64,000 nucleotides of DNA, from NCBI GenBank assembly GCA_030682795.1, contig JAUXNJ010000019.1:94627-158626 (forward strand), in the 5' to 3' direction. The position numbers were made by a program, and so were the translations under genes. The notes beneath the pieces are model-generated. The model was not told where the DNA came from. It did no database searches and worked only from the letters and a program-made list of their open reading frames with translations. This DNA comes from Sphingobacteriaceae bacterium. GTDB taxonomy: Bacteria > Bacteroidota > Bacteroidia > UBA7662. This document shows positions 36,312 to 55,736 of this stretch, in pieces (positions within the stretch are counted from its first letter, which is position 1; every line of letters starts with the position of its first letter).

Positions 36312-38573
36312 GTGATGATGAAAAAAGTTGTTTTAATGGGGCTCTGCTGGCTAGCTGCACTGCAAGTGGAGGCGCAGGTGCCGGTGGGACAATGGCGGGT
36401 GCATTTGCCGTATGCCTTTGCCACGAGTGTAGAAGTAACCCCTGAAATGGTGTATTGTGGCACCAAACAGGGCCTTTTTACTGTTGCTAGAAGCGATTTT
36501 GAGTTGCGTACCTTGTCGCGTATCAACGGACTTACCGACCAGGGCATCACCTACCTGCGTTACAGTGCCGACTACCAAACCCTCATCATCACCTATGAAT
36601 CGGGCAACATTGATTTGCTGCGCAACGGGCGTTTCACGCGCATCGACGCCATTGTACGGGCTAATTTGCCTGGCAGCAAACGCATCAACCATGTGCACTT
36701 AAAAGGGCGATTTGCCTATTTGAGTTGCGCTTTTGGCATTGTAGAGCTCGACTTACAACGTACTGAAATTCGTAATACCTTCATCATCGGTCCAGAAGGC
36801 AGTCGCCTGCCCGTAAGTGCCCTCACCGATGATGGGATAAACTTTTACGCGGCTACCGATAGTGGCATGTTTGTGGCAGCACTAAATGCGCCCAACCTCA
36901 GCAACTACGCCTTTTGGCAGCCAGAAGCCACTTTTAGAGGCACTAAACTCACCCACATCGACTATTTCGATAGTGCCGTGGTAAGCATCCAGGGCGATGA
37001 GTTGCTGCGTTACCGCAATGGTAGCTGGATTGGCCAGGTGCTGGATGCGGGCTTTCCCAATACCAGCTTGACTGTGCGCAACGGGCACCTACTGGTAACC
37101 AATGTGTTCCGTGTAAACGAGGTATTTGCCGATGAAACCTTCGCTGGTACCGCCTCCGACCCACGTATTCAAAATCCACGCCTCGCGGTGCGCTCCGGTA
37201 TTTTTACCTGGATGGCCGATGATGGCGGTGGTTTATTTCGCTATTTCGAGGGCATTGGAGAGCAACTCCTACCCAATGGTCCCTTAACCGAAAAAGCTGT
37301 GCACCTTTCGGCCGACCGCGCCGGGGTATTGGTGTCGGCAGGTGGCTTTAACTCGGTTTTGGCCAATCGCTACTCGCAGGAAGGGGCTTTTCAATTTCAA
37401 AACGAAAAATGGACCGTGCTCAACCGCAGCACCCTCTCGGCAAATAATAAGTTCTTCGACGTAATTCAGGCCAAATACGACCCCTTTACGCCAGGTTTAA
37501 AATACCTGTTACCTTGGGGAGGCGGCTTGGTGGCAGTGCGCGATACCAGCATCCAGGCCGTTTACACTCCCGTAAATTCAAGTTTAGAATATATTTCGGG
37601 CAGCATCGACCCCAATACCGGCATTGGCGATACCCGGGTGGGCGGCATCGACTTCGATGCGCAAGGCAATGTATGGATGAGCAATTACGGCGCCTCTCGT
37701 CCCATTTCAGTTTTGCGGCGTAATGGCAATTGGGAAAGCTTTTCACTCGGACCATTCAATGAGGTGATTGATATGTTGGTTGACAATGCTGGCAACAAAT
37801 GGGTGCGCTCACGCAGCGGTGGCGTGGTGGTTTTGGATCGGGAAAACAGTCGTTATGTGAACCCTAACACCGCCGAAGGCAGCGGCGGCTTGCCGAGTCC
37901 TATTGTAAATTGTATGGCCAAAGACAAAAGCGGGGCCATTTGGATAGGCACAGCGGAAGGTCCCATTGTGTTTTTCAATCCCAATATCGTTTTCCGCGAT
38001 CGTTACGACGGCCAGCGCATCCGCATCCAGCAAGAGCAATTTGTGGGTTTTTTATTGGGAAATGAAGTGGTTACTGCCATTGCCATAGATGGTGCCGACC
38101 GCAAATGGTTTGGTACCGCCAATGGGGTTTGGTTGTTTTCGGCCGATGGCACCACACAAATCCACCACTTCACTACCGAAAACAGTCCGATTTTATCAAA
38201 TGTAATTACGTCCCTCGCCATCCACCCAGTTACCGGAGAGGTGTTTATTGGCACCGACCGCGGGGTGATATCGTACCGAGGAACGGCCACAGAGGGGGCG
38301 GCAACGCATAGCGATGTCAAGGTTTTTCCCAATCCCGTACGGCCCGATTACGAGGGCCTGGTGTCGGTGAGTGGCTTGGTAACCAACAATTGGATAAAAA
38401 TTACCGATATCAGCGGCAATTTGGTGTACCAAACACGTGCCGATGGGGGACAAATCAGCTGGAATGGCCGGGATTTGAAGGGACAGCGGGTGGCGTCGGG
38501 CGTTTATTTGGTATTTTCGACTTCAGATTTTGGGGAGGAGACGGTGGCGGCGAAGGTGGTTTTTATACAATAG
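36312..38573 (+). CDS. Secreted beta-propeller (two-component-regulator propeller repeats) protein with T9SS C-terminal sorting domain, PorZ-like
   Basis: Signal peptide, repeated Reg_prop-like blades, C-terminal CTD (KVFPNPVRPDYEGLVSVSGL...GVYLVFS). Confidence 0.55.
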   Translation: MMMKKVVLMGLCWLAALQVEAQVPVGQWRVHLPYAFATSVEVTPEMVYCGTKQGLFTVARSDFELRTLSRINGLTDQGITYLRYSADYQTLIITYESGNIDLLRNGRFTRIDAIVRANLPGSKRINHVHLKGRFAYLSCAFGIVELDLQRTEIRNTFIIGPEGSRLPVSALTDDGINFYAATDSGMFVAALNAPNLSNYAFWQPEATFRGTKLTHIDYFDSAVVSIQGDELLRYRNGSWIGQVLDAGFPNTSLTVRNGHLLVTNVFRVNEVFADETFAGTASDPRIQNPRLAVRSGIFTWMADDGGGLFRYFEGIGEQLLPNGPLTEKAVHLSADRAGVLVSAGGFNSVLANRYSQEGAFQFQNEKWTVLNRSTLSANNKFFDVIQAKYDPFTPGLKYLLPWGGGLVAVRDTSIQAVYTPVNSSLEYISGSIDPNTGIGDTRVGGIDFDAQGNVWMSNYGASRPISVLRRNGNWESFSLGPFNEVIDMLVDNAGNKWVRSRSGGVVVLDRENSRYVNPNTAEGSGGLPSPIVNCMAKDKSGAIWIGTAEGPIVFFNPNIVFRDRYDGQRIRIQQEQFVGFLLGNEVVTAIAIDGADRKWFGTANGVWLFSADGTTQIHHFTTENSPILSNVITSLAIHPVTGEVFIGTDRGVISYRGTATEGAATHSDVKVFPNPVRPDYEGLVSVSGLVTNNWIKITDISGNLVYQTRADGGQISWNGRDLKGQRVASGVYLVFSTSDFGEETVAAKVVFIQ

Positions 38574-39260
38574 ACCGCTCGCTGGCGCTCGCTTTACAGA
38601 CCGGTCGCTGGTGCTCCCTTTTCAGACATCAGACCGCTGCGCTTTTCAGATGGACTAGGCTCTTGCGTTTATTAGTAGGCGGTCCTTGAGTTCATCGAAG
38701 GGTGGTCCCTGAGTTCATCGAAAGGTTATCACAGAGGCCTGTTTTAAGGCTTTGTTTGGTTTTTAATGGCTATTGCCCGTTGAATGGGCTGTTAGGGTGC
38801 AGGTAGAGGCTGGAAGTAAGGAGGTTTCACCTTTCCTTGAATTAGGCTGGGCTCGGAGCAACACAGACGGCTGTTTGCACAGCCGGGTTTCAAAACAACG
38901 GCCTGCTATTTGAAAGACCGCTCGCTGGCGCTCGCTTTACAGACCGGTCGCTGGTGCTCCCTTTTCAGACATCAGACCGCTGCGCTTTTCAGATGCAGAA
39001 GGCTCTTACGGTGAGGCATTTTGCGGCTGAATGGGCCTTTTTGGTTGATTTAGGATTGTTTTTTTAAAGCCAAATCGCCAATCATAAACCCCACTTCCCC
39101 TTTGAATTTTCAACTTTGAACCCCCCAGGTATTCTAAACCCTCTATGTAAATCCGCCAGAGCCTGCTCTATCTGAAAAGCGAGCGCCGCTCGCGGTCTGA
39201 TGTCTGAAAAGCCGGCGCAGCCGGCGGTCTGAAAAGTAAGCGCAGCGAACGGTCTTATCC
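38571..39260. repeat. Complex intergenic repeat element, inverted relative to the copy at 44238-44905
   Basis: Contains two identical 80-bp direct repeats (38571-38650 and 38917-38996), internal 22-bp duplications (ggtccttgagttcatcgaagg x2), reiterated 'ggtctg(a/t)aaagcg' modules, and a GATTGGCGATTT motif in reverse orientation. Confidence 0.8.
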
Positions 39261-39275
39261 GTAAATTCGCAACAA

Positions 39276-39992
39276 ATGCAACATAAACTCCGCGCCATTG
39301 TATTACGCAGCACGCCTTACAGCGACAGCAGTGTAATTGTGCGCATGTTTACCGACGAGCTGGGCATGCAGTCGTACCTCATCAATGGGGTGCGCAAAAA
39401 AAAGGCGAGCATCACCCCGGCCATGTTGCAGGCCCTGACTTTGGTAGAAATTGAGGCTTATCACAAAGAAAACAGCGGATTGCAGCGACTCAAAGAACTG
39501 CATGTGTACCCCGTTTTGGAGCAATTGCAGCTTTCGCCCCGGCACCATGTAGCCGCTACCGTGGTGGCCGAGTGTTTCAGCCGGGCCATTCGCGAGGAAA
39601 GCGCCCATGAAGAGCTGTTTCGCTGGATGCAGCGCCAAATTGTGGGACTTGATGCCAGCGATGCGCCCGGAGTAGAGGCCTTGGCCTTACTCACCCGCCT
39701 TACCCAATGGCTCGGCTTTCAGCCGCACAACGAGGCCTACAGCAAAGAAGCCTGGTTAAATCTGTCGGAAGGGGTGTTTGAAAACAGCCGCGACCACACC
39801 TCCACCTACGCCAATCCCCAAACCGCCCGACAGCTGGGGCATTTTTTGGCCACTGACGCCTTTGAACCCGCTAATTTACCCGGTAAACGCTACCTCGACG
39901 ACCTGCTGCGGCTGTATCAGTTGCACAGCGCTGGTTTTAGTCTGCCCCGCTCGCTCGACCTCTTCCGCGACATGGTACTCACAGACTTATAA
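39276..39992 (+). CDS. recO: DNA repair protein RecO
   Basis: RecO N-terminal OB-fold signature (LRAIVLRSTPYSDSSVIVRMFT...GMQSYLINGVRK) and typical length. Confidence 0.75.
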   Translation: MQHKLRAIVLRSTPYSDSSVIVRMFTDELGMQSYLINGVRKKKASITPAMLQALTLVEIEAYHKENSGLQRLKELHVYPVLEQLQLSPRHHVAATVVAECFSRAIREESAHEELFRWMQRQIVGLDASDAPGVEALALLTRLTQWLGFQPHNEAYSKEAWLNLSEGVFENSRDHTSTYANPQTARQLGHFLATDAFEPANLPGKRYLDDLLRLYQLHSAGFSLPRSLDLFRDMVLTDL

Positions 39993-40143
39993 GCAAGGCT
40001 TTATGCATAGGCATATACCCAATGTACGTTACTTGTCAGCCTCCTTCCCTCCAAATAATACAAATTGTTAAAATTTCTTTAACTCCCCTCTCGTTATAGA
40101 CGATGCGCATTAAAATTGATACATTCGCTTTTTAACCCTGCCT

Positions 40144-41439
40144 ATGAAGTCCATCAGCAAGTATCGTTATTGGTTTTTAGGCGCTGGTCTGGCCCTCGGC
40201 ATAGCGCTTTATCAGTTTGTTTTCAAAACCGATGTTTCGGGGGTGGAGCTCGAAGCAGAAGTACGCCGCGGCACCTTCGAAAGTGTGGTTTTTAGCGCTG
40301 GCGAACTGCTGGCCAAAAACTCGGAGAACATCAACGGTCCCGATGGCCTCCGCCAAATCGGCATCTGGCAGGTCAAAATCCAGGACCTCATACCCGAAGG
40401 CACGGTGGTAGAAGCAGGCGATTATGTAGCCGCACTCGACCAGAGTGAAATCAGTGGCAAGATCAAAGACACCGGTGCCGAGCTCGAAAAGGCCGAATCG
40501 CAATTTTTGCAGGTGAAGCTCGACACCACCTTGAACATGCGCAGCTCGCGCGACGAACTGTTGAATCTCGAGTTCCAGCTGCAGCAGAAAGAAATCACCC
40601 TCGAACAATCGCGTTTTGAGCCCCCCGCCATCATCCGGCAGGCCGAATTAGATTTAGAAAAAGGCCGGCGCGACCTCAAGCAGGCCAAAGAAAATTACCA
40701 GGTAAAACAGCAGCAAGCCGCCGCCAAGATGGCCGAAGCCCAAGCCACCCTGCAGCAGGTACGCAATAAAATGGAGATGCTCCAAAAGGTGGGCAGCACC
40801 TTTACCATCACCGCGCCCAAAGCCGGCATGGTAATTTACATGCGCGAATGGGGTGGCAGCAAGAAAAAAGTAGGCTCCACCATCTCCCCCTGGGACCCCG
40901 CCGTGGCTACTTTGCCCGATTTGCGGGAGATGTTGTCGAAGACATACGTAAACGAAGTCGACATCCGCAAGGTGCAAAGCGGACAATTGGTGCGCATTGG
41001 ACTGGATGCTTTTCCCGATTTACAGCTGCAGGGCAAGGTAACCCAGGTGGCCAATGTGGGTGAGCAGCGCGGCAATACCGACGCCAAGGTGTTTGAAGTG
41101 GTGATTGAATTACTCGAAACCGACAGTACCGTGCGACCGGGCATGACCACCGGCAACCGAATTGTTACCAGTACCCTGGCCGATACCCTCATTGTGCCTT
41201 TGGAAGCCATTTTTGTAGAAGAAGGGGTGCAGTTTGTGTACCTCAAAACCGGCTTAAGCATTGAAAAGGTGCAGGTAAAAATCGGCGAGTCGAACGAAAA
41301 CGAAGCCGTGCTCGTGGCAGGTTTGCGGGAAGGTGACAAAGTGCTCCTCAACAAGCCGGCTGGTGCCGAGAACAAAAAAATAAAGCTGCTAGCAACACCA
41401 AGCCTGGCCAATGAACAAGCGGGAAAGACAGCTCAGTAA
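40144..41439 (+). CDS. HlyD-family periplasmic adaptor (membrane fusion protein) of an efflux system
   Basis: N-terminal TM anchor, long coiled-coil, beta-barrel/lipoyl-like segments. Confidence 0.75.
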   Translation: MKSISKYRYWFLGAGLALGIALYQFVFKTDVSGVELEAEVRRGTFESVVFSAGELLAKNSENINGPDGLRQIGIWQVKIQDLIPEGTVVEAGDYVAALDQSEISGKIKDTGAELEKAESQFLQVKLDTTLNMRSSRDELLNLEFQLQQKEITLEQSRFEPPAIIRQAELDLEKGRRDLKQAKENYQVKQQQAAAKMAEAQATLQQVRNKMEMLQKVGSTFTITAPKAGMVIYMREWGGSKKKVGSTISPWDPAVATLPDLREMLSKTYVNEVDIRKVQSGQLVRIGLDAFPDLQLQGKVTQVANVGEQRGNTDAKVFEVVIELLETDSTVRPGMTTGNRIVTSTLADTLIVPLEAIFVEEGVQFVYLKTGLSIEKVQVKIGESNENEAVLVAGLREGDKVLLNKPAGAENKKIKLLATPSLANEQAGKTAQ

Positions 41440-42775
41440 TCTCCACATTGCCTTGGAGGCCTTGCTGGCCAACAAAGTGCGGTCGATGCTCACGGCCCTC
41501 GGCATCATTTTCGGGGTGGCGGCCGTGATTGCCATGCTGGCCATAGGCAACGGGGCGCGACAGGAGATTTTGGAGCAAATTCGGCTCGTGGGCGTGAACA
41601 ACGTGGTGATCAACTCGGTTTTTGAGCAGGATCAGGGCGATTTGAGCGCCGCCGAGCAGCAGCAGCCCAACCGCTTTAGCAGGGGATTGCACCTCAGCGA
41701 TGCCGATGCCATCCTCGAAATTTTGCCCTCGGTTACGGCCGTGAGTCCGGAGGTGGTATACGAAACCGAAATCATTCGCGAAGGCTTCAAGCGCAGCAGT
41801 CGGGTGGTGGGCGTTACCCCGGCTTATTTTGAGATCTCCAATTTATTGTTGGCGGATGGACAGGGCTTCACCGAGGAGCAGCTGTTGAAAGGACAAGCGG
41901 TTTGCATTGTGGGGGCTACCATCGCCAAGCGCTTCTTCAACAAAGAGCCGGCTTTAGGGAATTACATCAAGGTGGGCAACCATTGGCTCAAGGTGGTGGG
42001 GGTGCTCGAAGAGACCGCAGTGAGTGAAAAAGCCATCGAAAACCTGGGCATCCGCGACTTCAACAGCGATGTGTATGCGCCTATCAAGACCGTTTTAAGC
42101 AGGTATGTAAACCGGGCCTCGGTGTTGCAAGGCGGTGGCGGCGACGATGTGATTTTTGTGAACGGTGGCATGATCAGCTTTGATGGGGAGGAGGAAGAGG
42201 GCAAAAAGAAAAAGAAGAAAAACTACCACCAACTCGACCGCTTGGTAGTGCAGGTGGGGGCTTCGGAGGAGGTAAAAGCCACTACGGATGTGTTGCTGCG
42301 GATGCTCAGTCGCCGGCACAACGAGGTGGTAGATTTCGAAATCAGCATTCCCGAGCAGTTGCTCAAGCAGCAGCAGCGCACCAAAGATATTTTTAACCTG
42401 GTGTTGGGCGCCATTGCGGGTATTTCGCTGCTCGTGGGCGGCATCGGCATCATGAACATCATGTTGGCTTCGGTGCTCGAGCGCACGCGGGAAATCGGTA
42501 CCCGGCGGGCTTTGGGCGCGCAAAAAAGCGACATCATCATGCAGTTTATGTTTGAGGCCGTGCTCATTAGCTTGGGCGGCGGTGCCATCGGCGTGGTGCT
42601 CGGCGTGCTCATGGCGCTGCTGATTGATGCTTTCACCGACATCCAGACCATTGTTTCGCCTTTTTCTGTGTTTTTATCGTTTGGGGTGTCGGCCACGGTA
42701 GGACTCATTTTCGGCATCACCCCTGCCCGGCGGGCGGCCGAGCAAAACCCCATTGAATCGCTTCGTTATGAATAA
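41411..42775 (+). CDS. ABC transporter permease, FtsX/MacB-type (no ATPase domain)
   Basis: MacB-like topology (TM1, large periplasmic domain, 3 C-terminal TMs). Unusual GEEEEGKKKKKKN insertion. Confidence 0.7.
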   Translation: MNKRERQLSNLHIALEALLANKVRSMLTALGIIFGVAAVIAMLAIGNGARQEILEQIRLVGVNNVVINSVFEQDQGDLSAAEQQQPNRFSRGLHLSDADAILEILPSVTAVSPEVVYETEIIREGFKRSSRVVGVTPAYFEISNLLLADGQGFTEEQLLKGQAVCIVGATIAKRFFNKEPALGNYIKVGNHWLKVVGVLEETAVSEKAIENLGIRDFNSDVYAPIKTVLSRYVNRASVLQGGGGDDVIFVNGGMISFDGEEEEGKKKKKKNYHQLDRLVVQVGASEEVKATTDVLLRMLSRRHNEVVDFEISIPEQLLKQQQRTKDIFNLVLGAIAGISLLVGGIGIMNIMLASVLERTREIGTRRALGAQKSDIIMQFMFEAVLISLGGGAIGVVLGVLMALLIDAFTDIQTIVSPFSVFLSFGVSATVGLIFGITPARRAAEQNPIESLRYE

Positions 42776-44237
42776 AGTGTGCACGCTTTTGCTGTTCATG
42801 CTGCTTGGTGCAGCCGATGGCTTTGCCCAACAGCCCGAAGTCCTTCGCCTGCCCGACGTGATCGGCATGGCGCAGTTGCGGTCGCCGGCCTATTTGCGGG
42901 CGCGCACCACCTATGAAAACAATTACTGGCAATACCGCAATTTTAAGGCGGGCATGTTGCCACAGCTCACAGCTTTTGGTACCATACCCAATCTCAATCG
43001 CAGCATCGAGCGCATTACTTTGCCAGATGGGGCTGATGCCTTTGTAGATCGCTCGCTCGTGACTTCCGCTGCCAACCTCAGCTTGAGTCAGAACGTGCCC
43101 TGGACTGGCGGGCGTTTCAGCTTCTTCAGCAGTTTGCAGCGCATCGATTTGTTGGGCAACAACACCAACAGCTCCTACCTGGGCACACCCTTTTCGGTCA
43201 GCTATTTCCAAGACAACATCTTTTATAACCGTTTTAGATGGGAGCGCCAAACCGAGCCCTTGCGCTATCAGGAGGCCACACGTGGTTACGTAGAGCAGCT
43301 CGAGGAAATTGCCATTGAAGCCAGTCGCTTGTATTTTGAGCTGTTGTTGGCCGAAAACAACCAACAATTGGCCCTCATTAATTTGGCCAATACCGATACC
43401 CTCTTTCGCATCTCTGAGGGACGCTACCAGCTGGGTAAAATCGCCGAAAACGATTTGTTGCAGATTGAGTTGTCGCTGCTCAATGCCCGCAACCGGTTGG
43501 CCGAAACCAACCTCGATTTAGAGCTGCGGATGCAAGACCTCAAGCGCTACCTCAACCTGCCCAACAGTCAACAAATTGCCCTCGAAGTACCCGATCGGGT
43601 GCGCTTTTTTGAAGTGCAGCCGCCCATGGCCCTGGAGCAAGCCCGTAAAAACCGGCGGGCGGTGCTCGAGTTTCGGCGGCGGCGCTTAGAAGCCGAGCAA
43701 ATGATTGCACAAAGTCGCGGCGACAATGGGGTGCAGCTGGGAGTGAATGCCAATTTTGGGGTAACGCAGCGCGGTACTACATTGGGGAGCGTGTATGTAA
43801 ATCCGCAGGACCAGCAAACCTTGGCCCTCACCATGAGCATCCCCTTGATCAATTGGGGGGTAACGCGTTCGCGGATTCGCATGGCCGAGGCCAACCGCGA
43901 ATTGGTGGAAGTAAATGTGCAGCAAGAGGAGATCAATTTTGAGCAAGAGATTTTGTTGCAGGTGATGCGCTTTAACATGCTCAAAGACCAGCTGCTGGTG
44001 GCCGCCAAAGCCGATACCATTGCGCAGAAGCGTTTCGACGTGACCAAAGAGCGCTATCTGATAGGCAAAATTTCGATCACCGACCTCAACCTGGCCGTGC
44101 AAGAGAAAGATTTGGCGCGGCAAGCCTACATCAATATGCTGCGGACGTATTGGCAGTCGTATTATTTACTGCGGCGGTTAACGCTGTATGACTTTGATAG
44201 AGGCGTGGAAATAGGGGTGAAGATGGCGGATTTTTGA
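42753..44237 (+). CDS. TolC-family outer-membrane efflux protein
   Basis: Signal peptide and two tandem TolC repeats with coiled coils. Confidence 0.75.
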   Translation: MNRFVMNKVCTLLLFMLLGAADGFAQQPEVLRLPDVIGMAQLRSPAYLRARTTYENNYWQYRNFKAGMLPQLTAFGTIPNLNRSIERITLPDGADAFVDRSLVTSAANLSLSQNVPWTGGRFSFFSSLQRIDLLGNNTNSSYLGTPFSVSYFQDNIFYNRFRWERQTEPLRYQEATRGYVEQLEEIAIEASRLYFELLLAENNQQLALINLANTDTLFRISEGRYQLGKIAENDLLQIELSLLNARNRLAETNLDLELRMQDLKRYLNLPNSQQIALEVPDRVRFFEVQPPMALEQARKNRRAVLEFRRRRLEAEQMIAQSRGDNGVQLGVNANFGVTQRGTTLGSVYVNPQDQQTLALTMSIPLINWGVTRSRIRMAEANRELVEVNVQQEEINFEQEILLQVMRFNMLKDQLLVAAKADTIAQKRFDVTKERYLIGKISITDLNLAVQEKDLARQAYINMLRTYWQSYYLLRRLTLYDFDRGVEIGVKMADF

Positions 44238-44905
44238 TTGGCGATTTCGATTGGCGATTGGCGATTTCGATTGGCGATTGGCGATTTGGAGGAAAGAACC
44301 ATCTGTATATCTACAGATAAGGGCCATTAAACGCAGATCCACCAACGCCAGTGCCCGGTGGATTTATGATTTCCGTGGGCTGATTTCAGATTTATGATTT
44401 AACGGTGAAATAAATCTCTAGATCTGCTAATTGTGATGATTCTGCGCATAGTCATTTACGCCAGGGCCTGCTCTGTCTCTCAGCGAGCAACGCGATGGTC
44501 CCTGAGCCCCGTCGAAGGGCGGTCTGTAAAGCGAGCCGCAGGCGAGCAGTCTTTCAAATAGCAGGCCGTTGTTTTGAAACCCGGCTGTGCCAACAGCCGT
44601 CTGTGTTGCTCCGAGCCCAGCCTAATTCAAGGAAAGGTTAAATCTCCTTGCCATCAGCCTCTACCTGCACCCTAACAGCCTATTCAACGGTCAACGGCCA
44701 TTAAAAACCAAAGAAAGCTTTAAAAACAGCCCTCTGTGATAACCCTTCGACTGCTTTGCGCTCAGGGACCGCCCTTCGATGAACTCAGGGACCACCTCCT
44801 AATAAGCGCAAGAGCCTACTCCATCTGAAAAGCGCAGCGGTCTGATGTCTGAAAAGGGAGCGCCAGCGACCGGTCTGTAAAGCGAGCCGCAGGCGAGCGG
44901 TCTTT
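44238..44905. repeat. Complex intergenic repeat element, inverted partner of 38571-39260
   Basis: Begins with tandem (GATTGGCGATTTC)n at 44238-44290. Carries the same 'gcctgctctgtct' and 'ggtctg(a/t)aaagcg' modules and is reverse-complementary to 38640-38920 over about 300 bp. Confidence 0.8.
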
Positions 44906-44926
44906 CCCTATCTTAGCTACCTAATC

Positions 44927-45565
44927 ATGGTACAAGACGTAGATCATTATTTGGTAGATGGCTGCATGCGCTGTTCCCTTGGCGGCACACCGCAGTGTAA
45001 GGTGCACGCCTGGAAAGACGAGCTGGTGGCTTTGCGGCACATTGCTTTGGCCAGCGGCCTCACCGAAACGGTGAAGTGGGGCGTGCCTTGCTATACGTAC
45101 AACGACAAAAACGTTGCCGTGGTGAGCGCCTTCAAGGAATACGCTAGCTTGAGCTTCTTCAAAGGCGCCTTGCTGCCCGATCCCGAAAATTGGCTGGTGC
45201 AGCGCGGCGAAAACGCCCAAGCCACCAAGCTGCTGGCCTTTACAGATGTGGAGGTGATCTTCGAAAAAGAAGAAGTCATCAAAAGCTACCTCCTGAATGC
45301 CATAGAAATTGAAAAATCAGGCAAAAAAGTGGTTTTTGAGAAGGCACCAGAGCCCCATCCCGCCGAATTGCTACAGAAATTTGAGGAGGATGCCGCCTTC
45401 AAACAAGCCTTCTTTGCGCTTACGCCGGGCCGTCAACGGGGCTATGTGCTCTACTTTTCGGAGGCCAAGCAGGCCAAAACGCGTTTGATGCGCATTGAAA
45501 AGTATGTAGAGCAAATTAAAAAAGGCATTGGCATGCTCGACCATTACAAGGCGAAAAAGGAGTAA
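44927..45565 (+). CDS. YdeI/OmpD-associated family protein (DUF1801-like)
   Basis: N-terminal C-x-x-C...C motif and YdeI-like C-terminal half. Confidence 0.45.
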   Translation: MVQDVDHYLVDGCMRCSLGGTPQCKVHAWKDELVALRHIALASGLTETVKWGVPCYTYNDKNVAVVSAFKEYASLSFFKGALLPDPENWLVQRGENAQATKLLAFTDVEVIFEKEEVIKSYLLNAIEIEKSGKKVVFEKAPEPHPAELLQKFEEDAAFKQAFFALTPGRQRGYVLYFSEAKQAKTRLMRIEKYVEQIKKGIGMLDHYKAKKE

Positions 45566-45750
45566 GCAGGGGGTGGTGAATCTGAATCCACCTATAGCCT
45601 ATTTGCCTGCACGCCAGTCGATAACCACAGAGTAGGGAAGCTAAATTTTAAATTTTTTCTTGGCACCCTAAATAATAAGTAAACAGTTGTTGCGTATTTT
45701 AACGGTGCCAAAACAGCGGCTCGCTATCGCTTCTACAAAAATATACTGCT

Positions 45751-46152
45751 ATGAAAAAAGCCCTCCTACTGCAACTCTCCCTCGCCCTGGTGCTGTTGAG
45801 CAGCTGCGCTAAAAACATCCATGTTAACTACCAAAGCGACTCGGCAAATACAGGCAAGGTGGTGCTAAAACCGGCTGAACCCACCAATCGCACCTATGTA
45901 ACCTTTAACGACAGCTTGCTTGTGAACAAAAAGTACGTGAAGTCGGTAACCATCCACAACGTGCCAAGCGGTGAACACCACGTGCATTATACGTCGAACA
46001 ACTATGCGTACAAAGAAAAAATAGACGGTAAGATGACCGTTAATGTGGACAACAACCGCGTGATTACCAAGCTGATTGAAGTGCCTCCTTACAGTGCGGG
46101 TTATTGGATTGGACTGCTCATTAGCTTGCCTATTTTGGTGTTTGTGCTTTAG
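45751..46152 (+). CDS. Lipoprotein with C-terminal TM anchor, unknown function
   Basis: Lipobox LSSCA; AT-richer codon usage. Confidence 0.35.
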   Translation: MKKALLLQLSLALVLLSSCAKNIHVNYQSDSANTGKVVLKPAEPTNRTYVTFNDSLLVNKKYVKSVTIHNVPSGEHHVHYTSNNYAYKEKIDGKMTVNVDNNRVITKLIEVPPYSAGYWIGLLISLPILVFVL

Positions 46153-46304
46153 GTAAAAGCTGAGACAGCTTTCCGCTTTGTTACCTAGGCAAGCCCTTAG
46201 CTGCGCAAACTTGCCCCTAAATGTCAGATCTGTGGCTCGCATCAGCGAGTTACCGCAAGCACTTATACCGCAATAGCACTTTTCATTCCATTTATCAGAA
46301 TACC

Positions 46305-46934
46305 CTAATTTGTTGGCGGTGGCGGCGGGGGTTCAAAAGAAGCCTGAAAATCCGCCATCTCCTTCGGATACAAAATGCAAAGGAGGTCCTGGTATTTTTC
46401 GATTGCCTCTAACCTATGCCCTAAACCTTTGGTTCTGAGAAGCACTTTACCGGAATGGGCAGGACTCGTCAATAAGAATAAACTACTATGTATGGCTTCC
46501 TGGTTCGAGCTGTCAATGGCTGCAAACATGCTTTCAAGTGGGTAGCCCAAGGCCTCGGCAGGATAATATACCCGCGGAAAACACCATCTTTCTTCCTCTC
46601 CAATGAGGTTGACCATTTTTTCAAGAAACTCAATGAAAAGGCTATCGTTAGATTTGGTGAGCTGGAGCTGGTCGAAGCCCTGGCCTTTGCATACCGACAA
46701 ATTCACAACCACATTTAAAGTGTCACCCGCCGCCATGTATTTCGAAAACTCGGTATAATGCTGATGAAGATTAAAAGGCTCCTTTTGTTTTGCGCCTTCT
46801 TCTATACAGCCATACAGCCATACAGTAGCCACCAAGCTGCCTAAAAAGCCTTTTTTTAAATTCACAAACAGCTCGGTACAGCGCATCGTCGATTTCAGAT
46901 ATTCTAATATACGTGCTCCTTTTGGTTCAACCAA
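46305..46934 (-). CDS. Hypothetical protein (poly-Pro C-terminus)
   Basis: ORF only; no recognisable motif. Confidence 0.25.
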   Translation of the reverse strand: MVEPKGARILEYLKSTMRCTELFVNLKKGFLGSLVATVWLYGCIEEGAKQKEPFNLHQHYTEFSKYMAAGDTLNVVVNLSVCKGQGFDQLQLTKSNDSLFIEFLEKMVNLIGEEERWCFPRVYYPAEALGYPLESMFAAIDSSNQEAIHSSLFLLTSPAHSGKVLLRTKGLGHRLEAIEKYQDLLCILYPKEMADFQASFEPPPPPPTN

Positions 46935-46976
46935 TTGCTAGGGGCCCGTTTTTTAAACAACAGCCTGTAGCCATGT

Positions 46977-47366
46977 TCAAGGACCAACCTTTTCTAGCCA
47001 GTAATTCAAAGTCAATCCCAAAGCTCCTAGAAAAAACAGGGATGGTAAGAGCCAGCGAAAAATCTTCCGAAACGCCCTAAGGGCATCCAGCTCCTCTTGG
47101 CCCAAGCGCGAGCCTTGTAAAATGGGATCAAATTTCGAAAGGGGCAAAAAGCCGTACCACAAATCTACCAAGTTGACCCAGGGTAAGGTGCGGCTTTCGA
47201 AAGGCTTTGCATTGCCCCAGCGCCTGAGGTGCTTGGCCAAGCGGCGCAGCTCGCTGATGGTGCGTAAGTAAAAATTAAAGAGTGTCACAGTGATTGCTAA
47301 ACCAATGGCAAGGATAGGGGGACCATAGGTTTCGATGTGGGGCCATATTTGGTGCAGCTTTTGCAT
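46977..47366 (-). CDS. Hypothetical membrane protein
   Basis: Three hydrophobic segments; ORF only. Confidence 0.25.
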   Translation of the reverse strand: MQKLHQIWPHIETYGPPILAIGLAITVTLFNFYLRTISELRRLAKHLRRWGNAKPFESRTLPWVNLVDLWYGFLPLSKFDPILQGSRLGQEELDALRAFRKIFRWLLPSLFFLGALGLTLNYWLEKVGP

Positions 47367-47589
47367 GGATGGATTGAAGATAGTGATTTACTGGTTGTAC
47401 TATTTCCATTCAAAATGTATTTCTGAAACGTCGCTAAACTTGGAGATGGCTTCAAATCAGTCTGATATTTTGCCACTTTGGCATCAGACATCTTTCCTTC
47501 CCAATAGATTGTGTTCAACTTTGACTTATAGGGGACAGGTTACAGGTGTATGGGTGCCACCGTTAGGAGCTGTCAAAGGTTTCGTTCCC

Positions 47590-49179
47590 TTATGGATAAG
47601 CTATTAATTTCAAGCTAAATGGCGGCCAATCTTCAAATTCATTTCTACCTTCGAGAACAAGCTGACCTCCTCTAGGGGTAATCCACTTGCTTCTTAATCG
47701 CCCTTTTCCTGCAGGCTCAATATGATGTACAGGCCCAAAATGAGTATTAAGTGCCTCCATAAGTTGCTCTTGCACAACGGCCATGTACTGGGTAATGGGC
47801 TTTCTATCTGCGAAAATATGCTGCAATCCTGTTCTGAGGTATGGTTGCGTTTCTACAAATTCTAAACGACATCCCAGCCACACGCTATCAGAAGCTCGAA
47901 ACACATGTTCTGTCTTAATGGTAAGTATGGAATCGATAACAGCCCGGTGCATTTGTGTGAATTGCTGCACGGGCGGGTTTTGAATGGGTAAATAATACCC
48001 AACCCCTGTGCCTTGTCTGCTTTTTTGCATATTAGTACTGCCCCTAAACGCCTCAAGTTCATTCACACGTTTAAAATCAGCTATTTGACCAGAAAGAAGC
48101 TCGAAATAGCCCTGCCAGTTTGGTGTATGCTGATAAAGAAGCGTGTCGTAAAGCAATGTCCATTTTTGAAGGTGGAGCAATTCGCCTTTTATTTGCAGCA
48201 CCGTATAATGAACATTGTCTGAATGTCCGTATTCAAGCAAGCGCGAACTATCGTTGGGGTTGAGTCCTCGATATGCATTGTGCCAACGGCTATAAATGCG
48301 TTTAGGACCAAGATCAAGCAGAGGAATCCACTCATTTCCGGAATACTTTGCCACCAAAAGCCGTGTGCTATCATTTATCACATGTAAAAGCTGCCCATTG
48401 GCTACCCAACTCCGATGCAAGCCTAGCCTACTGGTATCAAAAGAATAGTACTCTCTTTCTGTGGTATCAGCCCAAATAGTAGTCTCTCCTTGCGGTTCAA
48501 CAGGAGGAAAAGCAGCAGGGCGGCGCCGTTTTTGGTAGCGATAGGCAGGAGGACAAGGCAAAAGATCCCGTGGATCAGCTATAAGACTAAGTGCACTACT
48601 GTAATCGAGGTAATATTTCCCTTGAAACCGGGTCATTCGGTCACTGCTGTAAGGCGTAATGTATTGTTTTTTCGTTTTTTTATCGATGAACCACGTGCAA
48701 GATCCCCATTCTCCGTAATCTCTATAGTATACGCGATACCGTTCATCTTCATACACTTGATTACTCCGTTTTCGGTATTCTAGCCAGCCGTCTTTCTTTA
48801 AATCGAAGCGATAGCTCCGGTTGTGCATGTAAGGAAGCAAATGTAATTGATCATTTTGTACGTATAAATCGAGGTAAATAGTGTTTTTGCGTACCACATC
48901 GGGCAGCGGTAGTTCACGCAAAAGCTCGCCTGAACGATTAAAAACAAATAGCCGAAACCAATCAGTATTGTGTGGTTGTGGGTCCCGTTCTGTCATCGTC
49001 ACATACCAATGCCCGTCGAAATCGGCCAAATGGGAGATATAAAAATAGCACCCAGGTGTTTGAACCCCGCGTACATCAAGCGTCAGGCTGTCATGTTGTA
49101 ACTCTAATTGGGGATGAGGGCGATCTTGCGCTTGGGTAATGGCCCCACAACACCAGAACATAAACACCAAGCCGAGCAT
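47590..49179 (-). CDS. Secreted 529-aa protein of unknown function
   Basis: The second in-frame ATG (49179) gives a clean signal peptide MLGLVFMFWCCGAITQAQ; the ORF track starts 17 codons upstream (49230). Trp/Tyr-rich, no known domain recognised. Confidence 0.4.
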   Translation of the reverse strand: MLGLVFMFWCCGAITQAQDRPHPQLELQHDSLTLDVRGVQTPGCYFYISHLADFDGHWYVTMTERDPQPHNTDWFRLFVFNRSGELLRELPLPDVVRKNTIYLDLYVQNDQLHLLPYMHNRSYRFDLKKDGWLEYRKRSNQVYEDERYRVYYRDYGEWGSCTWFIDKKTKKQYITPYSSDRMTRFQGKYYLDYSSALSLIADPRDLLPCPPAYRYQKRRRPAAFPPVEPQGETTIWADTTEREYYSFDTSRLGLHRSWVANGQLLHVINDSTRLLVAKYSGNEWIPLLDLGPKRIYSRWHNAYRGLNPNDSSRLLEYGHSDNVHYTVLQIKGELLHLQKWTLLYDTLLYQHTPNWQGYFELLSGQIADFKRVNELEAFRGSTNMQKSRQGTGVGYYLPIQNPPVQQFTQMHRAVIDSILTIKTEHVFRASDSVWLGCRLEFVETQPYLRTGLQHIFADRKPITQYMAVVQEQLMEALNTHFGPVHHIEPAGKGRLRSKWITPRGGQLVLEGRNEFEDWPPFSLKLIAYP

Positions 49180-49481
49180 ATGTTGTTTAATGATCCGCTT
49201 TTGGTAATGGTATGTTTGGTTCAAATACATTTAGCTTTTTAGGTAAAGAAGTGCGGAATCAGCCTTCGAAATCTTGCAATAAATTCACAAACCAGAGAAA
49301 AACATTGGATGATGTCCACATGGCCTTGGAATGTACTTTGTATGAACTAAGTTAAGCAATGAAGCTGTAACAAACCACAGCTTAAGGCCTTTTGCCGAAT
49401 TATTGCATTTCGGTGACACCAGGTCGTTCGCCTGGAACTGCTTTGTAAAGACAGCAAATAACCTTATTTGGAGAAGTTTGA

Positions 49482-49622
49482 CTACTTAAAATGTCCCGGC
49501 ATCCGCTGCAATTCCATCAGCTTCGCCCTCAGCTTTTCCATTTCGTTGCTTTTGTTGGTTTTGAAGCGCAGGATAGGGAAATCGTACTTCTCCAGGATGC
49601 GGTCTTTCATTTGATCGCGCTC
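49482..49622 (-). pseudogene. Truncated remnant of a DUF559 (Vsr-like endonuclease domain) gene
   Basis: Only the C-terminal about 45 codons are in frame (…RDQMKDRILEKYDFPILRFKTNKSNEMEKLRAKLMELQ), resembling the DUF559 C-terminus (…G..VLRF.N.EV…); upstream is frameshifted or absent. Confidence 0.3.
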
Positions 49623-49650
49623 GGCTTATTGGCTGCCGGTTTGGTGGAAT

Positions 49651-50445
49651 TCATTTTATAAATACATGTTCATAATGGTATTCTAAAAACAGCTTCGACG
49701 GGATAAACTTATCTGGAATTTGAATTTTTATATTGTCAAAAGCTTTGAAATAAGCCTGGACTGCCATTTCGCTTTCAAAATCCATGAAAGCCTTTGATAA
49801 GCAAACTTTAAAGTCACTAGTTATGGTCATGTAGCCTTTATCAAACGCCCGGTCGTGCAAGGCATTCAGACAAAGTCCATTTCGTGGATTTAACCTTTCC
49901 TTTTCATTTTTACTCCAAGGAACAATATGGCTCGCAACTAATAAGGCCGGGATTGACAAACCTGTGATACAGCATTTAGAATAGTAATTATTTAGAACCA
50001 TGGTTCTAAAAACAGATTGATTAACCCTGGCTTGAACCTGGCGCATTGCTGACTTACCTTCCAAATCTTTAATATCTAGCAGTATATCGGCATATTTTTT
50101 GGCAATGGTGGTTTTTTGTCTTTCTGCCAAAATTTCCTCGCTCTTAAAAACCAACTCTTCTTGGTTGCTATAAAACTCATCCCAAATGGGCTGTACTTGA
50201 TTCATCCCACCTTTCAGTCCACCAATACCCCTCGCTTGGAGTCCTGGGTCGCAACTGGCAAAATTTCCCAAACGCATACCAATTGAACTAGGTGTCCTGT
50301 CCAAGAGATTAGCCAAATCAATTATCTCAGGGTTATGCTTGTGCATTTTCCCAAAGGGTAACTTCAAATAAAGATTAAAGGCTAAAATTAGCTCTTCACG
50401 AGTCCAGAGGTTTTTGGGCATGGAGGTTTCAACTTGCTTGAACAA
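49651..50445 (-). CDS. HNH endonuclease (HNH_2-type), putative type IV/modification-dependent restriction nuclease
   Basis: C-terminal HNH_2 motif (ALLVASHIVPWSKN...NGLCLNALHDRAFDKGYMTI) with a roughly 130-aa N-terminal domain of unknown fold. Confidence 0.5.
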   Translation of the reverse strand: MFKQVETSMPKNLWTREELILAFNLYLKLPFGKMHKHNPEIIDLANLLDRTPSSIGMRLGNFASCDPGLQARGIGGLKGGMNQVQPIWDEFYSNQEELVFKSEEILAERQKTTIAKKYADILLDIKDLEGKSAMRQVQARVNQSVFRTMVLNNYYSKCCITGLSIPALLVASHIVPWSKNEKERLNPRNGLCLNALHDRAFDKGYMTITSDFKVCLSKAFMDFESEMAVQAYFKAFDNIKIQIPDKFIPSKLFLEYHYEHVFIK

Positions 50446-50914
50446 AAATTAAGTAATTAAAATTAGTTGATTTATTCGGGCATTTGATATGTAAAAACAT
50501 GATTTGTTACGTTTTTATTAAGACGGGCATGTGATCGCATAAGCTGCTTATTAATTGCATTAAAAATTCTATATTTTGAGCTCGGCTGTCATTAACAATG
50601 GTTTCTGTTTTCGTGTGAGCCGCAGTTCAGTATTGCCTTTTGCGTTGGCCAATTCTTCTTTAAACTCCGTGAGATAGGTTAGAGTTGGATTAAGTGTAAT
50701 TCGCTCATACTATTCTCTAATCTGCGGTATGGAGCTTAGCAACTATTCACTTCATTCGCTTATTGGTGAAAGGCACGAGAATCAGCACATAATGCCTCTC
50801 TCTTGGCATTGTACGATTCTAGAAAAGCCTCTATTACTGCCTTTCAGGCTTTGAAAACTGGCTTTAAATCTAGCATTTGATACATTTTCACTTTTTACTG
50901 TTGAAAACTTGTCT

Positions 50915-50931
50915 TGGACATTTTTTGTCCA
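50915..50931 (+). promoter_or_regulatory. Candidate C-box operator palindrome upstream of the RM controller gene
   Basis: Perfect inverted repeat TGGACA-ttttt-TGTCCA about 50 bp upstream of the HTH gene. A second IR AACTAA-N9-TTAGTT lies at about 50957-50977. Confidence 0.35.
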
Positions 50932-50979
50932 TAAACAACAAATCCTTAGTTTTGAAACTAATAGTCCGTTTTAGTTACG

Positions 50980-51297
50980 ATGAAAAATATCAAAAGTTTT
51001 GGCGAGCATTTGAGGTCATTAAGAGAAAATGCGGGGTTAACTCTCAAAACAGTTGCAGAACAAATAGGCGTAGACACGTCTCTACTTGCAAAAATTGAAC
51101 GAAATGAAAGACAACCTTCAAAAAGCCTCATCAAAGACGCAGCATTATTTTTCAAAGTCGATGAAAAAGAATTGACAAAACTGTATTTAAGTGACGTTAT
51201 AGCCTATAAAATTTTAGATGAAGAGGGCGACATAAGTATTCTAGAAGTAGCTGAGACGAAAGTGAAATATCTAACTGCCGTTAAAAATGAAAAATGA
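50980..51297 (+). CDS. XRE-family HTH protein, probable RM controller (C) protein
   Basis: HTH (LTLKTVAEQIGVDTSLLAKIERNER). Directly upstream of, and overlapping, the C5-methyltransferase gene. Confidence 0.55.
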   Translation: MKNIKSFGEHLRSLRENAGLTLKTVAEQIGVDTSLLAKIERNERQPSKSLIKDAALFFKVDEKELTKLYLSDVIAYKILDEEGDISILEVAETKVKYLTAVKNEK

Positions 51298-52600
51298 AAT
51301 CACAGTCATCGAATTATTCGCAGGGGTTGGCGGGTTTCGACTTGGTCTAGAAGGTTGGCAAGGAAAATCCGCTTCTTCCTTTTATCAAAAAGCATTGGAA
51401 TCCTCATACAAAGTGATTTGGAGCAATCAATGGGAACCTTCTACAAAAGCTCAACACGCATCATTGGTTTATGAAAGTAAATTTGGCAAGCAGGATCATT
51501 CTAATGAAGACATAGCTCAGGTGGATGTATCTAGCATACCAGATCATGATTTACTTGTTGGAGGTTTTCCTTGTCAAGACTATTCTGTTGCAACTACTTT
51601 AAAAAACTCAAAAGGTTTAATAGGTAAAAAAGGTGTTCTTTGGTGGAGTATTCATAAAATATTGAGCGATAAAAAGAATAAACCAAAGTACTTATTTCTT
51701 GAAAATGTTGACCGTCTCCTAATCTCTCCATCAGGCCAGCGCGGAAGGGACTTTGCAATAATTCTCAAGAGTTTAAACGACCTTGGCTATGCTGTCGAGT
51801 GGAGAGTAATTAATGCTGCAGATTACGGGATGCCTCAAAGAAGACGAAGGGTTTTTATTTTGGCCTATCTCAATTCCACCGACATTTACCAACAGTTACA
51901 GGAAACCTCGCCTGTAGATTGGATTTTGGAAGAAGGAACCCTCGCCGATGCTTTACCCGTGACATCAAAGATGATGTTATTTCCAACAGAATTTAAATTG
52001 GTTGGAGATGTTGTACATATATCTGATCATTTTAATAAAGATAAAAATGTGGGGGTTTTTGAAAACACTGGAGTTATGCTTAACGGAGTAGTGACTACCA
52101 TCAAAACAGTACCAAGCTATGGTGGTGAACAGACTTTGTTAGGTGATATTCTTCAAAATGGCGAAGTATCCTCCGAATTTTACATTGATAAAGAGGACTT
52201 AGACAAGTGGCATTACCTTAAAGGACCTAAAAAGGAACTTCGCAAAAACGCTGATGGCTTTGAATATCATTATAATGAAGGAGGGATGATTTTTCCTGAT
52301 TCGCTTGACAAACCGTCCAGAACCATAATAACAGGTGAAGGAGGTAAATCCCCTTCAAGATTCAAGCACGTCATACATACTTCAAAAGGATATAGGCGCT
52401 TGTCTCCAGTGGAATTAGAAAGATTGAACATGTTTCCTGATAATCATACCAAACTAGAAGGTGTAAGCGATGCAAAAAGAGCCTTTTTCATGGGTAACGC
52501 ATTAGTAGTTGGGGTAATTGAGAAAATTGGCATTTCTTTATGTCAAAAAATTTCCCAAAATGTTAGCTTACAATCCGGAAAACAAGAGGTCTGTAGTTGA
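51287..52600 (+). CDS. DNA (cytosine-5)-methyltransferase
   Basis: Motifs I (FAGVGGFRLG), IV (GGFPCQDYS), VI (ENV), VIII (QRRRRVF) and X (GNALVVGV). Confidence 0.9.
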   Translation: MKNEITVIELFAGVGGFRLGLEGWQGKSASSFYQKALESSYKVIWSNQWEPSTKAQHASLVYESKFGKQDHSNEDIAQVDVSSIPDHDLLVGGFPCQDYSVATTLKNSKGLIGKKGVLWWSIHKILSDKKNKPKYLFLENVDRLLISPSGQRGRDFAIILKSLNDLGYAVEWRVINAADYGMPQRRRRVFILAYLNSTDIYQQLQETSPVDWILEEGTLADALPVTSKMMLFPTEFKLVGDVVHISDHFNKDKNVGVFENTGVMLNGVVTTIKTVPSYGGEQTLLGDILQNGEVSSEFYIDKEDLDKWHYLKGPKKELRKNADGFEYHYNEGGMIFPDSLDKPSRTIITGEGGKSPSRFKHVIHTSKGYRRLSPVELERLNMFPDNHTKLEGVSDAKRAFFMGNALVVGVIEKIGISLCQKISQNVSLQSGKQEVCS

Positions 52601-53978: not shown

Positions 53979-54192
53979 TATGAGAATTCCGTTTCAAATT
54001 GACCCCCTTCGTGTTGGATTAGTTTTGGGGGAGTTTACAACAATAGCATCTTGACTGTCGATCTTAGCCTTGCTACTAGCGTTTTGCATCTACCCGAAGA
54101 TGGCGATTTCGTCGCACTTCACTGTCAACCAAGCACAAAGCTTGATTTAACCTCTGAACCGCCACTTTTGGGCAGGTGGTGTTGGTGGCTGT

Positions 54193-55047: not shown

Positions 55048-55289
55048 AGTTATATTTTATTCAGAGTTTCTCTTAAGTGGCTACTAACTGCATGCTTTAC
55101 GTAAGGAGAATAGCCAGTTAAAAGTAGCTTCATCGGTTATTTGCTTTTGCAATATAACTTATGAAAGCTGTTGTTGATGCGCATGGGCATAAAAACATTT
55201 CAGCAACCAGCAAATGGGCGGTGCGGACGTGGTTTTTGGCACGTTGGGTGTTTGAATGGGCTTGGCGGGGGCCGGCGCTTCGACGAGGC

Positions 55290-55736
55290 TCAGCGACCGG
55301 TATTTTCTTCCACCACCCGCTTGTAATTATCCATAATCGCCTGCCAGCCGGCGCGCTGCATGTCGATGGGATTTTCGGTTTCGGCATCGAAGGTTTGTGT
55401 AACGAGTACCTGCTCATCGGCGCCGGTTGCTGAGGGCATCGAAGCATCAAAGGTAATGCGCACGGTGCGGCCGTCGGCGAGGTGGTAGGCAATGAGGGCT
55501 TCGGGTTCCACAGCATCGTAAATGCCTTCAAAATCGAAGGCGAAGGAGCCGTCGCGGGCGGCCATGCGGTAGTTGAAGCTGCCGCCCACACGCAAATCGT
55601 TGGTGGCGGCAGGACAATGCCAGCTGGGGTCGGCAAAGTTCCACTGCATGATGTGCTCGGGCTGGGTCCAGTAGGCCCAGGCTTTAGCGAGGGGGGCTGC
55701 CATGGTTATTTGGAGGGTGACTTTTTCGAAGGACAT
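55290..55736 (-). CDS. SRPBCC/AHSA1-like (activator of Hsp90 ATPase homolog) domain protein
   Basis: 148 aa; N-terminal ITMAAPLAKAWAYWTQPEHIMQW typical of the AHSA1/SRPBCC family. Confidence 0.55.
   Translation of the reverse strand: MSFEKVTLQITMAAPLAKAWAYWTQPEHIMQWNFADPSWHCPAATNDLRVGGSFNYRMAARDGSFAFDFEGIYDAVEPEALIAYHLADGRTVRITFDASMPSATGADEQVLVTQTFDAETENPIDMQRAGWQAIMDNYKRVVEENTGR

Follow-up and report, generated by a model that had tools for sequence, protein, structure and literature searches.

The window analysed here, a 64-kb stretch of contig JAUXNJ010000019.1 from a genome labelled 'Sphingobacteriaceae bacterium', contains two intergenic spacers that enclose recO and the HlyD/MacB-FtsX/TolC genes and that are built from one family of repeats, the subject of this study. 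The left spacer (702 nt) separates the stop codon of a gene for a PorZ-like beta-propeller protein (38571-38573) from the recO start at 39276, and the right spacer (689 nt) separates the TolC stop codon (44235-44237), where the HlyD/MacB-FtsX/TolC genes end, from the start of ydeI (DUF1801/OmdA) at 44927. An earlier note on this DNA had claimed that both spacers are wholly occupied by repeat material, and gene boundaries and alignment bear this out. Self-comparison of the window revealed an inverted pair, 38572-38946 against 44903-44520, which extends over 384 nt (90.1% identity; blastn E ~5e-147) and whose arms contain exact runs of 25-47 nt, the longest being 47 nt; the repeat shared by the two spacers is far beyond chance. 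The note had described this as two inverted copies of ~670 bp; a strong inverted repeat does exist, but the inverted homology covers only ~384 nt, and the remainders of the spacers (39011-39257 and 44229-44519) are not inverted copies of each other, although the same module types occur in both. Two arrays within them, 39154-39256 and 44807-44904, are in direct orientation and 75% identical. A third related stretch was found at 20112-20380, and apart from this 20.1-20.4 kb copy and the two spacers the self-comparison detected no further repeats in the 64 kb. The repeat is neither confined to the recO locus nor a mere low-complexity similarity, there being a third member in the window and copies in relatives. 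Smaller units that the note had listed were mostly recovered, namely the ggtccYtgagttcatcgaagg units (22-23 nt), the GTCTGAAAAG modules (~25 nt) and the direct repeats of the left copy (38572-38667 and 38915-39010; 96 nt at 96% identity, with no difference in the first ~80 nt). Two others hold for one copy only: the tandem array of GATTGGCGATTT said to lie at an end of each copy is found in the right copy (44229-44290), whereas the left has a single minus-strand unit (39072-83), and the 'ctgcgca' block occurs in the right copy and at 20.2 kb but not in the left copy.

Alignment of all copies revealed a common order of parts, in which an AT-rich leader of short-period repeats is followed by a connector of ~60-70 nt, a head of ~35 nt (CGCMAGRGCCTGCTCTRTCT, (..CGCMAGRGCCYGCTCTRTCT)) and a head-to-tail array of one to five modules, whose terminal GGTCT lies close to a gene boundary. 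Leaders are of two types and are made either of GATTNNN heptamers (GATTGGC/GATTTNN; found at 44229-44290, 44356-44400 and 20121-20160) or of TTGAA/TTCAA repeats. Modules of type A measure ~26 nt (range 25-32) and consist of the linker G-GTCTG-WAAA and a hairpin of the form GNGANC-loop-GNGANC with a loop of 3-6 nt and a stem of 6-7 bp, and modules of type B (GGTC-CCTGAG-loop-TCGAAGG) have the same design. GTCT borders every module on both sides, within G-GTCTG-WAAA on the 5' side and within G-GTCT on the 3' side. The hairpin modules are all intergenic and, within arrays, all run head-to-tail, an inverted arrangement being found only between whole arrays, in the PorZ-recO spacer. A leader and arrays of variable length are present; past the terminal GGTCT(TTC), alignment of the 3' flanks gave no conserved tail. 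A search with a profile hidden Markov model located six arrays at three loci in the 64 kb.

The left spacer consists of two elements placed back to back: one, on the minus strand, has the form [array-core-array] and extends into the PorZ stop codon, and the other, on the plus strand, runs towards recO. The minus-strand element comprises array U-L1a (38572-38667, minus strand; nhmmer E = 4e-23), with a head (CGCAAGAGCCTAGTCCATCT) and 3.5 hairpin modules, the last GGTCT of which overlaps the complement of the PorZ-like stop codon; a core of 247 nt (38668-38914, plus strand), made of two type-B modules (38681-38724) and ~190 nt of other sequence; and array U-L1b (38915-39010, minus strand), the 96-nt direct repeat of 38572-38667. 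A central leader region (39011-39153, no strand assigned) is common to both elements and contains the minus-strand GATTGGCGATTT unit at 39072-39083 and plus-strand TTGAA-type repeats at ~39100-39122. Array U-L2 (39154-39257, plus strand) follows with a head and three hairpin modules and ends 18 nt before the recO ATG. The right spacer consists of one plus-strand element with a second leader nested in its head and an extra 351-nt [core + array] block flanked by a 36-nt repeat of the array end. Leader P (44229-44290, plus strand) has 7-8 GATTGGC/GATTTC heptamers, the first of which double as the final codons of TolC and its stop, and it is followed by the connector and the start of the head (ACGCCAGTGCC; 44291-44355, plus strand), which are orthologous to 8330-8395 of L011, a related locus introduced below. 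The nested second leader (44356-44457, plus strand; GATTTNN heptamers up to CTGCGCATAGTCATTT) is flanked by an 11-nt repeat, ACGCCAG(T/G)GCC, is missing from the same spacer in L011, and is 86% identical to a reversed leader-head-module copy behind PorZ in L011. Array U-R1 (44458-44555, plus strand) comprises a head, a type-A module, a type-B module and a further type-A module; the second copy of the core (44556-44806, minus strand) is ~92% identical to 38668-38914 and inverted relative to it; and array U-R2 (44807-44906, plus strand), with a head and 3.5 modules, stops 20 nt short of the ydeI ATG, and its final 36 nt (44871-906) repeat 44520-44555. The third member of the family (20112-20375, plus strand) has a heptamer leader, a head (20218-20237) and five hairpin modules, and ends 9 nt before the rlmN ATG. 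Among the genomes compared, the core was found in the window genome alone. A terminator scan detected only weak terminator-like hairpins, which lie in the core on both strands (38734-38753, plus, and 38885-38868, minus, in the left copy). The core contains only short open reading frames, and a 33-aa frame present in both copies (MKPGCANSRLCCSEPSLIQGKVK..; 38792-38893, minus, and 44574-44675, plus) was judged unlikely to be coding, with its TTG start and three non-synonymous changes between the copies.

To describe the hairpins we collected 30 distinct modules from four genomes, delimited their stems by hand and then counted pairs. Arm positions 1, 2, 5 and 6 were paired in 116 of 120 cells, whereas shuffling of the partners gave a mean of 95 and reached the observed value in 0 of 5000 trials. 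The pairs themselves vary: C-G (16), G-C (6) and T-A (5) occur at position 2, and G-C (22), A-T (5) and C-G (2) at position 5. Positions 3 and 4 form tandem G.A/A.G pairs in 21 of the 30 modules and Watson-Crick pairs in most of the others. A separate count on 21 distinct modules gave 76% of cells paired against 62.5% after shuffling (none of 500 shuffles reached this level), a covariation score of 0.384 against 0.136, and 20-41% paired cells in slid controls; here pair 11-25 was CG in 13 modules, GC in 4, UA in 3 and UG in 1, and pair 14-22 was GC in 14, AU in 4, CG in 2 and GU in 1. A covariance model of the module matched within the arrays only. The view that this is a structured, multi-copy repeat family is thus upheld, the ~26-nt modules being hairpins with covariation. 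As judged from the pairing patterns, the hairpin is shown to be kept on one strand only, the sense strand of the array, because the G.A and occasional G.T pairs become C.T and A.C on the opposite strand. Reading GCGAGC..GCGAGC as a direct-repeat binding site in double-stranded DNA was considered and discarded, since the variable positions are complementary and not identical (GGGAGC..GCGACC, GCGAAC..GTGAGC). The loops are mostly C-GCA-G, C-GAA-G, AAA or GCCA, together with one C-UUCG-G and GNRA-like ones. Loops of these types and Y-GA-R tandem sheared pairs are stable in DNA and RNA alike, and the data therefore fit either nucleic acid.

We next compared the window with relatives at increasing distance: L011 (RecO 92% identical), L012, L035 (~82% nucleotide identity), a sister species represented by ten 20-kb loci (97-99.9% identical to one another and 83% to the window), and more distant ones. 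L011 carries the family in both spacers without the core, and its TolC-ydeI spacer contains a simple 244-nt element that is 73% identical to the rlmN copy of the window. The PorZ-recO spacer measures 506 nt in L011, 195 nt in L012 and 153, 173, 195 or 196 nt in the sister species, where it contains either a minimal pair of a reversed and a forward array or arrays in which reversed type-B modules vary in number. The TolC-ydeI spacer is 103, 226 or 251-258 nt long within the sister species, and strains with the 103-nt and the 251-nt alleles share 99.7-100% identity over the final 600 nt of TolC and 98.8% in ydeI. In the 20-kb loci of the sister species, family members are confined to the same two spacers. 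At the third locus, the rlmN array has five modules in the window, four in L035 and one in the sister species, and the stems differ while the hairpin formula is kept. Relatives at 69% RecO identity have an 89-nt PorZ-recO spacer without the family, and in those at 89% RlmN identity a 31-nt spacer likewise lacks it. Identical modules or module pairs also recur at non-orthologous loci; the pair GGGAGC..GCGACC and GCAAACC-AAA-GGTTTGC, for example, is found at the rlmN locus in the window and at the ydeI locus in the sister species. Overall, the comparison shows that the family persists in the same three spacers across related species, and that the number and identity of its modules change fast, even among strains with ~99.5% identity (99.5-100% for the genes beside the TolC-ydeI spacer).

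The copy number of the heptamer leader varies as well, L043 (14968-15000) having one extra GATTTAT relative to L040 in strains that are ~99.9% identical. At the gene end of this leader, the last 2-5 codons of TolC and its stop codon are themselves heptamer repeat (44217-44237 in the window; also in L038-L047), and the C-terminal tail of TolC differs with the spacer allele (..VVISDF*, ..VKMADF*, ..VKTLDF* or ..VKEERF*). Since the 3' codons of TolC are allele-dependent heptamers, the repeats rewrite the C-terminal tail of the protein. Short-read contigs from the same sample match the window exactly, yet they stop at module boundaries (20279 and 39202), which hints that the family is multi-copy or polymorphic in the source sample.

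Searches of public collections extended the comparison. An exact-motif scan of 185,579 species genomes with GGTCTGATGTCTGAAAAG gave nine matches, all in unrelated contexts; a scan of JGI metagenomes with CTGCGCA-N7-WWACGCMAGRGCC gave 18 matches, all attributable to chance; and nothing matched in plasmid and phage collections (blastn) or in a viral scan with the core 21-mer. Exact look-up of a conserved P-II protein, as a route to more strains, returned the same sample only. The family is confined to a genus-level clade, because relatives carry members and distant relatives and the public collections scanned do not. The linker GCGGTCTGAA (for example at 39222-39231) is a motif found only inside the arrays. 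It is one base off the Neisseria DNA uptake sequence, GCCGTCTGAA; with the motif confined to the arrays, this resemblance is probably a coincidence.

Considering the architecture, covariation and distribution of the repeats together, we think it rather likely that the spacers are 'nests' of modular extragenic repeats, non-coding and restricted to this lineage, which form a new family of the BIME/REP-BOX-BrickBuilt kind (bacterial interspersed mosaic elements and repetitive extragenic palindromes being meant by the first two names). The conserved linkers and heads would be the sites between which recombination or gene conversion adds, removes and exchanges modules. Recombination between family sequences is proposed because the lineage-specific additions end in family sequence (36 nt and 11 nt) and not in target duplications. 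The 351-nt [core + array] block would have been copied between the spacers in opposite orientation in the window's lineage, once this had separated from L011, or else would have come from a further copy in the genome, and this copying would have created the 384-nt inverted repeat. The hairpins would act as single-stranded nucleic acid, most likely within transcripts, as hairpins in the leader or trailer of a flanking gene, the main alternative being that they act as single-stranded DNA recognised by a propagation enzyme. We favour, as a hypothesis drawn from the sequence, a role as transcript hairpins or promoter-proximal architecture, because three arrays face the downstream gene and the gene-proximal module stays put with a compensatory change in its stem; we hold it tentatively, because there are three loci, arrays facing the PorZ 3' end are a counter-example, and some strains are array-less.

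Several points weigh against the explanation that we prefer. Whole-array folding energies were no better than those of shuffled sequences (minimum-free-energy z-scores from +2.4 to -3.2, with no consistent signal and with the rlmN array, at z = -3.2, as the sole exception), in calculations with ViennaRNA, which credits G.A stems little. A role of the hairpins at the RNA level is something we infer, and the covariation among paralogous modules could reflect a requirement of the copying mechanism and not a host function. A promoter scan gave no conserved sigma-70-like promoter inside the leaders, and visual search for the Bacteroidota TTG/TAnnTTTG motif within them identified nothing conserved between copies. 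Only three independent loci have been seen, so that the family may be small. Finally, the differences between strains in spacer alleles could come from homologous exchange with diverged donors and not from local turnover. The suggestion of a structured RNA, also made in the earlier note, survives in part: covarying hairpin modules speak for it, whereas neither the folding of whole arrays nor an Rfam scan does (Rfam 15 gave no match in the whole window at the gathering threshold and, at E <= 5, two chance-level matches with E = 3-4 in 38400-45100).

Most of what is known of mosaic extragenic repeats concerns Proteobacteria and Firmicutes, and few have been described in Bacteroidota; we know of none in this phylum that combines head-to-tail arrays of covarying hairpins with conserved tandem G.A pairs. 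The BOX elements of Streptococcus pneumoniae have the structure boxA-boxB(n)-boxC, that is, an ordered mosaic with a variable copy number in the middle, an intergenic position near gene starts and a stable predicted structure, all of which apply to the present family too. In the latter, however, no terminal modules are mutually complementary, the modules are individually hairpinned, and the two families are unrelated in sequence and belong to different phyla. The REP/BIME repeats of Proteobacteria are likewise short imperfect extragenic palindromes (20-40 nt) with a conserved unpaired flank (PMC3733652, PMC2817692), and they share with the window family a mosaic intergenic assembly, stems that vary while pairing is kept, and vertical persistence with local turnover. 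They differ in the tag, which is GTAG or CGTC in REPs (PMC3733652) and GTCTG-WAAA in the window family, and in arrangement, REPs being mostly inverted dimers with head-to-tail pairs rare (PMC3733652) and the modules described here all head-to-tail; a stem with conserved tandem G.A pairs and the three loci seen so far also set the window family apart, and it is not known to be accompanied by a gene for a REP-associated tyrosine transposase. BrickBuilt of Porphyromonas gingivalis (Klein et al. 2015, PMC4596501) belongs to the same phylum, is strictly intergenic and species-limited, commonly occurs in partial forms, and has a leader and a tail with imperfect tandem units of ~23 nt, variable in number, between them, over tens to hundreds of nt. 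Unlike the window family, it is bounded by small terminal inverted repeats and its tail is a defined one, and the description of its bricks does not mention hairpins that covary individually or conserved linkers (PMC4596501); the likeness is one of description. The leader, for its part, resembles heptamer repeats (the cyanobacterial STRR, short tandemly repeated repetitive sequences, and TAACTGA in Beggiatoaceae, Cyanobacteria and some Bacteroidetes; PMC4679880), which are also intergenic, lie at gene boundaries and vary in copy number between strains. The heptamer of the window family has a different sequence, is only one module of a larger element and lies at the end far from the start codon.

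It is conceivable, though we regard it as rather unlikely, that the arrays have a function and represent an undescribed class of strand-specific hairpin arrays. Either (a) single hairpins of ~26 nt with tandem G.A pairs would be the mobile units of a REP-like system, inserted next to GTCT by an HUH-type enzyme for single-stranded DNA and so building up head-to-tail arrays in fixed nest spacers, or (b) the arrays would be multi-hairpin RNA leaders in which repeated GGUCUG(A/U)AAA linkers and G.A hairpins attract an RNA-binding protein, and this protein would control the adjacent genes. If mobilisation of single-stranded DNA of the REP kind were at work, a Y1/HUH enzyme, similar to RAYT (REP-associated tyrosine transposase) or IS200/IS605, would recognise the irregular hairpin and cut and paste a hairpin module or an array next to GTCT, and repeated insertion would generate head-to-tail arrays. 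Such a process would account for a hairpin that is imperfect and specific to one strand, for the conserved flanking motif with GTCT at both sides of every module, and for near-identical modules at non-orthologous loci as well as in different genomes. It would also suit the chemistry of the hairpins, as C-GNA-G loops (GCA, GAA, GTA) and Y-GA-R tandem sheared G.A pairs reportedly form very stable DNA mini-hairpins (work of Hirao and Yoshizawa on d(GCGAAGC)). Yet no transposase gene is among those inspected in the window and the ~20-kb related loci, and the family keeps to the same three spacers across species and is not scattered. Moreover, known REPs have GTAG/CGTC tags and are mostly inverted dimers in which head-to-tail arrangement is rare (PMC3733652), and on balance we consider that the modules are unlikely to have spread in this way.

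The arrays may alternatively be gene-proximal regulatory leaders, that is, multi-hairpin 5' untranslated regions of recO, ydeI and rlmN that affect stability or form a platform for an RNA-binding protein, or a promoter architecture at -33. Consistent with this, an array is co-oriented with the downstream gene at all three independent loci, a conserved TAnnTT(T/C/A)G box, 4-22 nt from the ATG, follows the end of the arrays at a distance of 5-16 nt, and the gene-proximal module has kept its position in three species with a compensatory change in its stem (T-A to C-G). On the other hand, some arrays face the 3' end of the PorZ-like gene, certain strains without an array upstream of ydeI or recO still keep the gene, recO, ydeI and rlmN have no function in common, and promoter scans found no promoter consensus upstream of the arrays. 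That the arrays as a whole exist as regulatory leaders hence seems improbable to us. Boxes of the Bacteroidota -7 type, TATCTTTG, TAAATTCG and TATCTTAG, stand at 20371-20386, 39259-39278 and 44910-44929, only 4-10 nt ahead of the ATG of rlmN, recO and ydeI, respectively, and are conserved across species. Their closeness to the ATG suggests that the mRNAs might be leaderless or have very short leaders, or that the boxes might not be promoters.

It is very unlikely that the [array + core] units are small RNA genes, with transcription beginning close to the head, crossing the hairpin modules and terminating at the terminator-like hairpin with which the core opens. Both cores do carry the hairpin CGGCTGTGC(A/C)AACAGCCG plus TCTGTGTTGC, 25-30 nt 3' of an array and on its strand, but the U-tract is weak, the core is exclusive to the window genome while other family members enter genes without a terminator, and Rfam has no match.

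Just as remote is the reading that the inverted copies serve as a switch for recombination or a hotspot of instability, which would invert the recO-efflux segment or, by way of direct modules, delete it. The 384-nt arms at 90% identity, 5.6 kb apart and with exact runs of 25-47 nt, make RecA-dependent inversion conceivable. However, the inversion or deletion of the recO-TolC block that the earlier note had envisaged is not seen in 13 related loci, where PorZ, recO, HlyD, permease, TolC and ydeI lie in this order and in one orientation; the core that forms the arms is absent from all relatives compared, so the arrangement is recent and lineage-specific; the genes adjoining the segment include no recombinase; and recO is a housekeeping gene and an unlikely target of phase variation. 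The bracketing of recO-TolC is probably a by-product of two neighbouring repeat nests and not a switch. Nor are the elements classical miniature inverted-repeat transposable elements, a likeness that had been proposed: terminal inverted repeats are absent, the leader end and the GGTCT end having no inverted similarity, the inverted pairs found in the repeat search are whole arrays in opposite orientation and not element termini, and comparison with L011 gave no target-site duplication, the added blocks ending in the 36-nt array end and the 11-nt ACGCCAGKGCC head. A CRISPR array, in which repeats of 23-47 nt alternate with unique spacers of similar length, was dismissed: conservation here extends over no more than 10-11 nt, what varies is a hairpin of 15-18 nt that obeys a constrained formula, there are one to five units, and no cas genes lie nearby.

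The preferred explanation, a family of modular extragenic repeats, has several consequences. The inverted repeats on either side do not speak for a recO-efflux cassette that is mobile or invertible. Spacers with the family differ between strains whose flanking genes are ~99.5% identical, which makes the family a source of promoter-proximal variation and a possible marker for strain typing; it also causes short-read assemblies to break at module boundaries. Should the hairpins be recognised by an enzyme or an RNA-binding protein, the strict formula GNGANC-loop-GNGANC provides a concrete test substrate.

The surroundings of the repeats differ between relatives in other respects. In the sister species (L048-L057), rlmN comes immediately after menB (ECH), and a canonical terminator separates the two; the window (16874-20383) and L035 have ~3.5 kb of extra genes at this position, among them genes for PhyH and acetyltransferase and, in L035, a Fic gene. 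The best named homologues of RlmN, ~71% identical, come from Fulvivirga and Cyclobacteriaceae (Cytophagales), and the label 'Sphingobacteriaceae bacterium' may be imprecise. On the far side of ydeI, ~11 kb of DNA (45700-57150) lies between ydeI and an epimerase gene and is absent from the sister species, in which ydeI is followed directly by the epimerase gene. This segment encodes an HNH endonuclease, a C5 DNA methylase, a MutH/Sau3AI-like nuclease, a DUF3800 protein and several open reading frames without a Pfam match, and looks like a strain-specific restriction-modification or defence island.

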